Shown here: piece by piece, positions 6,224 through 6,821 of the stretch
How positions within the stretch are numbered: position 1 is the first letter of the stretch
How the letters are laid out: every line of letters starts with the position of its first letter
DNA from: Escherichia coli
Lineage (GTDB): Bacteria > Pseudomonadota > Gammaproteobacteria > Enterobacterales > Enterobacteriaceae
Direction: 5' to 3' (one strand)
NCBI RefSeq assembly: GCF_003334315.1
Contig: NZ_QOWR01000092.1
Length of the DNA: 7,507 nt
The notes under the pieces: model-generated
What the model saw: the letters and a program-made list of their open reading frames with translations, nothing else
The model's database searches: none
What the model was told of the DNA's origin: nothing
Program-made: the position numbers and the translations under genes

Positions 6224-6242
6224 TCCGTATGAACCATACGGA
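6224..6242. promoter_or_regulatory. Perfect palindrome TCCGTATG-AAC-CATACGGA overlapping the SD of the Rep-like gene
   Basis: 8-bp arms with a 3-nt spacer read from the sequence. Right arm overlaps GGAG (6240-6243), 8 nt before ATG 6252. Could be an operator, a translational hairpin or a nick-site hairpin. Confidence 0.35.
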
Positions 6243-6251
6243 GATTTAACC

Positions 6252-6821
6252 ATGACCTACAAATACAACCCCTTCTGGCAGCAACGTATTCGTGAGACGG
6301 TGCGGCACGCACTGAATGTTCATCCCCGCCTGACGGCATTGCGGGTTGACCTGCGTTTCCCGGATGTACCGGCAGCAACGGACGCAGCTGTGATATCCCG
6401 CTTCATCAATGCCCTGAAAGCCCGAATCGACGCTTACCAGAAACGTAAGCATCGGGAAGGTAAACGCGTGCATCCCACCACCCTGCATTACGTCTGGGCC
6501 CGGGAGTTTGGGGAGTGCAAAGGTAAAAAACACTATCACCTGATGCTGCTGGTTAACCGGGATACCTGGTGTCGTGCCGGTGATTACCGTGCTCCGGGAT
6601 CACTGGCCGGGATGATTAAACAGGCGTGGTGCAGTGCCCTGGGAGTGGATGTCGGGTGCCATGCCACGCTGGTGCATTTTCCGGCCTGGCCGGCGGTGTG
6701 GCTGGAACGCGATGATGACACTGGCTTTCAGCAGGTGCTGGAACGTGCTGACTATCTGGCGAAGGAACATACCAAAGCTCACTGCACCGGTGAGCGCAAT
6801 TTTGGCTGTAGCCGGAGTTGA
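6252..6821 (+). CDS. Putative HUH-type rolling-circle Rep-like endonuclease (possibly inovirus Gp2-like family), 189 aa
   Basis: ATG 6252 with GGAG 8 nt upstream (track starts at in-frame GTG 6216). Contains an HUH-like motif HYHLMLLV (6531-6539 encodes HYH) and a C-terminal YxxK (YLAK, Tyr codon 6753-6755), the order expected for Rep-class HUH enzymes. Family assignment is from motifs only. Confidence 0.6.
   Translation: MTYKYNPFWQQRIRETVRHALNVHPRLTALRVDLRFPDVPAATDAAVISRFINALKARIDAYQKRKHREGKRVHPTTLHYVWAREFGECKGKKHYHLMLLVNRDTWCRAGDYRAPGSLAGMIKQAWCSALGVDVGCHATLVHFPAWPAVWLERDDDTGFQQVLERADYLAKEHTKAHCTGERNFGCSRS

Follow-up and report, generated by a model that had tools for sequence, protein, structure and literature searches.

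The closest described relatives of the gene considered here are found in Escherichia coli K-12, where the YagK protein of CP4-6 and the YfjJ protein of CP4-57 are encoded in cryptic islands of the P4-integrase/AlpA type, beside YfjI-like genes, and belong to the Pfam family PF11726 (YagK_YfjJ_C; YagK/YfjJ; formerly Inovirus_Gp2). The family was previously used as a 'Microviridae/Inoviridae replication-associated protein' model by Tisza et al. (bioRxiv 10.1101/555375), and a Gp2-like gene is a core gene of the AlpA-type islands of Pseudomonas; for one such island, I55, transduction by a jumbo phage has been demonstrated (bioRxiv 10.1101/2024.08.29.610337). The DNA analysed here, a stretch of 7,507 nucleotides (nt) of the E. 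coli contig NZ_QOWR01000092.1 (hereafter the window), carries a gene of this family at positions 6252-6821 (plus strand, as for all features below unless stated otherwise). Its product of 189 amino acids (aa), followed by a stop codon, is identical to RefSeq WP_000221530.1, named "inovirus Gp2 family protein" by RefSeq/PGAP. A first-pass annotation had described a Rep-like HUH endonuclease with a perfect palindrome over its ribosome-binding site (RBS), and had proposed that the two form an autonomous replication module with its origin. The enzyme family is solidly supported by the results below; the palindrome is more likely a stem-loop of the 5' untranslated region (5' UTR) that occludes translation than a replication origin. 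The mechanism favoured overall, held with moderate confidence, is thus an island-encoded HUH nickase combined with a translation-blocking leader stem-loop.

The window protein belongs to PF11726 as YagK and YfjJ do, matching it over nearly its full length (E = 1.1e-47, residues 21-187, model positions 1-170 of 170), and YagK, compared by tblastn through the F' plasmids carrying that K-12 segment, was approximately 40% identical to it. It differed from both in belonging to a separate 189-aa orthologous group with its own leader hairpin. The start codon is the ATG at 6252 in RefSeq and in all orthologues; the open reading frame (ORF) listing also offers an upstream GTG at 6216. The ratio of non-synonymous to synonymous substitution rates (dN/dS) against orthologues was 0.09-0.24, indicating purifying selection. 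Approximately 700 clusters were matched in a search of 1.8 billion cluster representatives, and residue conservation was assessed in 110 full-length homologues sharing 32-48% identity. As E85, H94, H96, W126, Y168 and K171 were invariant in all 110, the protein motifs lie far beyond chance; R31, D33, L34, P37, N102 and K175 were near-invariant (K175 in at least 90% of the homologues). The HUH motif H94-Y95-H96, in which residue 95 is always Y or F, is followed by LMLLV (6531-6554, with HYH at 6531-6539) and lies on strand 93-102 of the predicted structure. The YxxK motif, Y168-L-A-K171-E-H-T-K175 (6753-6776, with YLAK at 6753-6764), lies at the end of helix 156-170 and supplies the tyrosine presumed to be catalytic. 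The histidine pair and the YxxK motif, both singled out in the first-pass annotation, belong to the invariant set.

The AlphaFold2 model of the protein had a predicted local distance difference test (pLDDT) score of 96.4 and a predicted template modelling (pTM) score of 0.91, and displayed the HUH alpha/beta fold. E85 (codon at 6504-6506), on strand 79-86 next to the HYH strand, is the putative third metal ligand, by analogy with the Glu and two His of adeno-associated virus (AAV) Rep and parvovirus NS1. The best structural matches of the model were HUH nucleases, namely SIRV1 ORF119, parvovirus NS1, AAV Rep, RepB and microvirus initiators, and a Foldseek comparison with viral models (BFVD) returned microvirus VP4 and replication initiators as well as ORF2/G2P proteins. 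At the profile level, PF23343 (replication-associated protein ORF2/G2P) gave a weak and partial match (E = 4.7e-5, residues 59-119 only), which 96 of the 110 homologues also produced individually, along with scattered weak matches to Rep_1, RepSA, Phage_GPA and Helitron_like_N. The HUH motif precedes the tyrosine, which is the order of Rep proteins and not that of relaxases. Taken together, the motifs, profiles and model point solidly to a single-domain, single-tyrosine Rep-class HUH endonuclease homologue of PF11726, as the first-pass annotation had suggested, and place the protein among HUH nucleases and not elsewhere. This Rep-type identity was already known, being present both in the current annotation and in the earlier use of PF11726. 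Sequence searches of the PDB, with either the single protein or the 110-sequence profile, matched no chain; NCBIfam had no family for the protein, and PADLOC gave no match.

Compared with the initiators of single-stranded DNA (ssDNA) phages (Microviridae VP4/gpA-type proteins, and the ORF2/G2P proteins of PF23343 in plectroviruses and inoviruses), which were its best viral structural matches, the window protein has the same fold and the same HUH-then-YxxK order at approximately 15% sequence identity and a TM-score of about 0.5. It possesses only one conserved tyrosine, in YLAKEHTK; the corresponding motif of phiX174 gpA is YxxKYxxK. Unlike those initiators, it is encoded by a chromosomal, island-borne gene that occurred in no verified phage genome among those searched. 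In the phage records searched, the protein was not encoded by filamentous-phage genomes and had no close relationship to a phage G2P; its sole link to inovirus gene II (G2P) is the partial PF23343 match. Identities to SIRV1 ORF119, parvovirus NS1/AAV Rep, pMV158 RepB, RAYT TnpA-REP and Helraiser were 8-15%, and the window protein lacks a helicase or oligomerisation domain.

The sequence confirmed the other element described in the first-pass annotation, a perfect palindrome that overlaps the Shine-Dalgarno (SD) sequence upstream of the ORF with the HYH and YLAK motifs. This palindrome, TCCGTATG-AAC-CATACGGA (6224-6242), has arms of 8 nt each (6224-6231 and 6235-6242) that are 100% complementary, and a 3-nt loop, AAC. 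Taken by itself it is weak evidence and not unusual: two perfect hairpins with a stem of at least 8 base pairs (bp) and a loop of 3-8 nt were observed in the window against 0.63 expected per 7.5 kb, and 14% of shuffles had at least two. The only other such hairpin, ATAAGCCTG-GTAAAATA-CAGGCTTAT (1305-1330; 9-bp stem, 8-nt loop), lies in an IS66 element, between tnpB (stop at 1279) and tnpC (start at 1329). The palindrome stands above chance because of its position on the RBS and the conservation of its arms. The chance of such a hairpin falling on one given 30-nt RBS region is approximately 0.0025, and the E. coli alleles examined, whose protein identity falls as low as about 79% and whose dS rises to about 0.45, share both arms unchanged with a single exception, L017, in which the upstream region has been replaced and the hairpin is degenerate. 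The loop varied between E. coli alleles (AAC, AACGAAAC or AACAAACC; 3 or 8 nt, through a 5-nt indel), as did the flanking bases.

The palindrome forms the core of a larger predicted mRNA stem-loop (6215-6254), with an inner stem pairing 6221-6231 with 6235-6243 and 6247-6248, and an outer stem pairing 6215-6219 with 6250-6254. The SD sequence GGAG (6240-6243), located 8 nt before the ATG at 6252 and kept at this position in 15 of 16 orthologues (GAG in the remaining one), lies inside the 3' arm; in RNA, one added U·G pair takes in all of GGAG, and the AUG is paired by the outer stem. For the window allele, the predicted probability of pairing was 0.95 for the SD sequence and 0.98 for the AUG (z = -2.95). 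The AUG was likewise predicted to be paired in six of the eight E. coli-type alleles, with z-scores of -2.7 to -6.9. Across the orthologues, gathered by a homologous-protein search followed by retrieval of the encoding contigs, the SD sequence was predicted to be paired in 16 out of 16 (probabilities of 0.70-1.00), through two different architectures. Among E. coli alleles, one-sided changes (C-G to U-G, G-U to A-U) preserved the pairs, which fits one strand acting as RNA. In other genera, where synonymous sites are saturated, the sequence differs: the partner of ACCGGAG is another anti-SD sequence, CCGGT, at a distance of about 42 nt on the upstream side, and the quality of the inner stem varies. 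The stem changes there were again one-sided and mostly wobble-compatible. A strand-specific, single-stranded element is therefore favoured, as the property that appears to be selected is pairing with the RBS, achieved by different sequences in different genera.

The rest of the leader also appears to be structured. Leader hairpin 1 (6153-6200), which is followed by a T-run at 6205-6210, contained three pairs that were changed on both sides and still paired among E. coli alleles, consistent with a transcribed, structured leader. The segment 6118-6200 folds into further hairpins, and in one allele (L006) a 24-nt internal deletion still leaves a hairpin. Hairpin 1 and the T-run were considered as an intrinsic terminator or attenuator and set aside: they failed the criteria of the terminator scan, and no hairpin abuts the T-run in other genera. 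A promoter-like site, TTTACA-16-GAAAAT (6088-6115), identified by consensus match only, would give a 5' UTR of approximately 130 nt. Within the leader, a mini-ORF, ATG AAC CAT ACG GAG ATT TAA (MNHTEI*; 6229-6249), starts in the 5' arm of the palindrome and stops 2 nt before the main ATG. Its length and frame are not conserved, and the ATG at 6229 was rejected both as the true start and as the start of a conserved leader peptide: depending on the orthologue, this ATG opens a frame of 3, 6, 7 or 8 codons, fuses in frame with the main ORF as an extension of 10 codons, or overlaps it out of frame.

This arrangement resembles the hairpins that sequester SD sequences in the repA/repZ leaders of IncFII, IncI and IncB plasmids and in RNA thermometers: a stable stem is predicted to hold the SD sequence in its 3' arm, with the AUG taken up by the outer stem, and a tiny upstream ORF ending 2 nt before the main ATG recalls leader-peptide coupling. 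On the other hand, the window leader showed no antisense RNA, no pseudoknot and no conserved leader peptide, and an Rfam scan of the whole window returned no match. Of the features expected of an SD-sequestering hairpin, conserved (predicted) SD pairing was found throughout the 16 orthologues; covariation of the stem was not.

Under the favoured explanation, the enzyme would use Y168 to nick the DNA of the island in its single-stranded or supercoiled form, and E85, H94 and H96 would bind the metal. The most plausible purpose of such nicking would be replication or processing of the island circle after excision, perhaps jointly with the island-encoded YfjI (DUF3987) protein. The stem-loop at 6215-6254 would hide the SD sequence in its 3' arm and the AUG in its outer stem, and translation of a potentially dangerous nuclease would be held low until the stem-loop is opened.

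Several observations weigh against this explanation. Concerning the enzyme, a literature search found no experimental work on any PF11726 member, so that nicking and a role in replication are inferences, and many of the islands hold two or three PF11726 paralogues that have diverged from one another and are sometimes adjacent, which is unusual for a replication initiator. Concerning the RBS hairpin, no double compensatory change was found in the 16 + 7 pairs examined, and the leader comparison relied on 15-16 sequences, many of them closely related, which makes for a small and partly redundant sample. The more distant paralogues of the same islands lack an RBS hairpin. The only promoter-like match, that at 6088-6115, is at chance level, such sites being no more numerous in the region than expected, and a transcription start inside the palindrome, if there were one, would rule out the RNA hairpin. 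Finally, in all 15 orthologous leaders (6205-6233 in the window and the equivalent place in L012, L020, L022-L025 and L028), the T-run is followed by AC and, 17-18 nt later, by an invariant TATG(A/G)A, despite saturated synonymous sites between groups. This TATG and its fixed spacing from the T-run are sequence-level constraints outside the hairpin model; neither a promoter, a terminator nor a conserved upstream ORF accounts for them, and they leave some room for a sequence-specific role in DNA or ssDNA.

The genomic distribution of the gene bears on the function of the enzyme. Orthologues of 189 aa with 63-90% identity were found in Klebsiella, Enterobacter, Salmonella, Serratia, Pectobacterium, Cedecea and Rouxiella. 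In the non-E. coli loci that were retrieved, alpA follows the Gp2-family gene after approximately 150 bp, in the same orientation, and several of these loci also possess genes encoding DUF7828/Zn_ribbon_11 proteins. Synteny with genes encoding AlpA, zinc-ribbon, WYL, YeeP-like GTPase, DUF932, RadC and CbeA proteins extended across six genera. This island synteny shows that the Gp2-family gene is a conserved backbone gene of the AlpA/P4-integrase-type islands of Enterobacterales, and the window gene itself lies in an AlpA-type island, in agreement with the setting beside an alpA module noted in the first-pass annotation. The paralogues occurring within single islands, annotated as 'inovirus Gp2 family' and 'inovirus-type Gp2', were located in L005 (8081-8872), L010 (5767-6498 and 9940-10506), L011 (10352-11560), L012 (8001-8570 and 10151-10717) and L015 (7001-7570 and 8855-9640). 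The backbone of these islands is adjoined by variable cargo, often anti-phage; near the Gp2-AlpA pair in other genera, this included an OLD-TOPRIM ATPase with a UvrD helicase (Gabija-like), a methyltransferase with a ResIII helicase, and a TIR-domain protein (L020 8926-12527; L022 9106-13805; L028 1716-2135).

The multiplicity of paralogues per island and the frequent anti-phage neighbours (OLD-TOPRIM with UvrD, TIR, methyltransferase with ResIII) are also what gives some weight to the best surviving alternative, that the HUH enzyme is not a replication initiator. It would instead be a mobilisation relaxase, an ssDNA factor for satellite packaging, or a domesticated DNA-binding or defence factor, and the hairpin would only set its expression level. 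Two further points are in line with this possibility: the gene is kept intact under purifying selection in degraded islands without a nearby integrase, and the related Pseudomonas island moves by phage transduction. The motif order and the nearest structural relatives are nevertheless those of replication initiators, not of MOB relaxases; PADLOC gave no match, and no positive sign of relaxase or defence activity was found. A non-initiator role is considered less probable than the favoured reading, with perhaps one chance in four.

The proposal of the first-pass annotation, in which the palindrome is a double-strand origin or nick site (as an extruded or ssDNA hairpin) and forms with the gene an autonomous rolling-circle module, fared less well and is judged unlikely. 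The Rep-class nature of the enzyme agrees with it, and in rolling-circle plasmids of the pMV158 and pT181 families a nick-site hairpin often lies just upstream of rep. The retention of the central TATGAA as sequence in 15 orthologues, despite saturated synonymous sites, is in its favour as well, and a hairpin formed by the plus strand when displaced as ssDNA would also account for wobble pairs that are specific to one strand. Against this, the 3-nt loop of the window allele and the 5-nt indel in other alleles with intact genes are hard to square with a nick in the loop, 8-bp arms are short for cruciform extrusion, and between genera it is pairing with the SD sequence, and not the sequence itself, that is kept, through different partner sequences and spacings. 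A search near the gene for a CTTGATA-type nick consensus, iterons or direct-repeat arrays, and AT-rich or skew features found none. The palindrome is therefore probably not an origin or nick site.

The distribution across replicons also argues against an autonomous module. Among 5,426 complete E. coli genomes, 3,933 carried the gene, the median copy number being two, and 9,896 of its 9,909 E. coli locations were chromosomal; Nissle 1917 is one of the carrier strains. Only 67 of 72,556 plasmids carried it, mostly large IncF/IncHI plasmids or mislabelled chromosomes; on these large replicons, which have their own replication systems, the gene is accompanied by AlpA and zinc-ribbon genes in a block resembling an island. 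Scans of 2.9 million viral contigs with the protein and a 13-sequence alignment recovered two that carry the gene, both isolate-derived. Among 50,697 phage records, tblastn found a single match, an UNVERIFIED low-coverage contig of 4.4 kb. This record (L031; OR844780.1, UNVERIFIED_ORG) is a node with a coverage of 3.7 from a phage preparation, and is probably host DNA. This distribution is not that of a replication gene of small plasmids or phages. A scan of genome contigs with the single protein returned just two short fragments, encoding it at 92-94% identity, in two Gram-positive assemblies, Paenibacillus tengchongensis (L013; NZ_WACP01000054.1, 683 bp) and a Collinsella metagenome-assembled genome (L014; JAIJJM010000559.1, 2,199 bp); these short, low-coverage contigs are almost certainly E. 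coli contamination.

A broader proposal, equally doubtful, would see in the YagK/YfjJ proteins the long-missing nucleases that replicate or process the very abundant islands of the AlpA/P4-integrase type, a part of which behave like phage satellites. The single-tyrosine HUH enzyme would nick the excised circle and lead to rolling-circle or sigma amplification, and its synthesis would be gated by the leader stem-loop, whose plus-strand hairpin (TATG, T-run) might double as an ssDNA recognition or nick element and so couple origin use to expression of the initiator.

The palindrome might also be an operator in double-stranded DNA, whose inverted repeat, lying over the promoter or RBS, would be bound by a dimeric regulator such as AlpA, the HUH protein itself or a different repressor of the island, so that transcription is repressed. 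Autoregulation of this kind had been offered as an alternative in the first-pass annotation. A perfect 8-bp inverted repeat directly upstream of the gene, arms that are invariant in E. coli alleles, and the constant proximity of AlpA-type regulators are compatible with it. However, a dimer site of fixed geometry is disfavoured because the spacing of the half-sites varies: it is 3 bp in some alleles and 8 bp in others, and in other genera, where the half-site sequences also differ, it exceeds 20 bp. The palindrome occurs once per island, only at the Gp2-family gene, and a regulon search across the island found no further copies or half-sites above chance. The outer stem relies on G·U pairs, which are meaningless in duplex DNA, and no credible promoter overlaps the palindrome: the T-run and TATGAA were rejected as a sigma-70 promoter, as the best -35-like hexamer leaves a spacer of 14-15 nt and TATGAA lacks the final T. 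An operator is thus less likely than an RNA-level hairpin, and few grounds remain for preferring it. That the palindrome is a neutral feature arisen by chance is very improbable: the number of hairpins expected in the window and the lack of double compensatory changes would allow it, but the arms remain unchanged at a coding dS of up to about 0.45 while the loop and flanks vary, an analogous SD-occluding hairpin exists in genera with saturated synonymous sites, and the z-scores reach -6.9.

The window lies in a degraded island, ridden with insertion sequences (ISs), near cobUST and a tRNA-Asn gene in the CP4-44 region of the E. coli chromosome. The segment 5800-7507 was found over 100% of its length at 99.9% identity on the E. 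coli chromosome NZ_CP104618.1, and at least 80% of it is also matched in each of more than 3,000 complete genomes of the species. In the window, the island is broken up by an IS66 element (552-2864) and by the end of an IS100 element (from about 7431), and the YfjI (DUF3987) protein of the island is missing from this copy. An AlpA-family helix-turn-helix gene of 68 aa belonging to the same island lies at 4519-4725 (minus strand). A divergent gene at 5852-6052 (minus strand), found beside the Gp2-family gene in E. coli islands, encodes a small zinc-ribbon and transmembrane protein with 78% identity to the L015 copy; it displays a CxxC...CxxC pattern and a C-terminal transmembrane helix, and its family assignment rests on weak PHROG hits only. 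Between these genes, a remnant of hha (Hha/YmoA; 5459-5596) is 60% identical, over residues 21-67, to the gene that related islands carry intact in the corresponding position (L015 6119-6331).

Downstream of the Gp2-family gene, a 'putative zinc ribbon protein' of the DUF7828/Zn_ribbon_11 type is encoded at 7081-7446; most loci show this gene in synteny with the Gp2-family gene. Here, the IS100 insertion at about 7431 changes the C-terminus of the zinc-ribbon protein: the end of this IS21-family element (7431-7507) occupies the 3' end of the gene, which measures 366 bp here compared with 402 bp in uninterrupted islands. Pfam annotation of the neighbours (DUF3987 for YfjI; DUF7828 and Zn_ribbon_11 for the zinc-ribbon protein) did not clarify the mechanism, and a Pfam scan of a neighbouring 200-aa protein gave no match.

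Overall, the analysis mostly re-finds the existing annotation of the enzyme and adds to it a plausible and ordinary kind of translational control. The leader hairpin offers an experimental handle, as mutations in its arms should de-repress the protein. Most E. coli genomes contain the PF11726 family, frequently with more than one copy, and related islands occur across Enterobacterales and in Pseudomonas; knowing the target of the HUH enzyme would explain how AlpA-type islands, with their virulence and anti-phage cargo, are amplified or moved.

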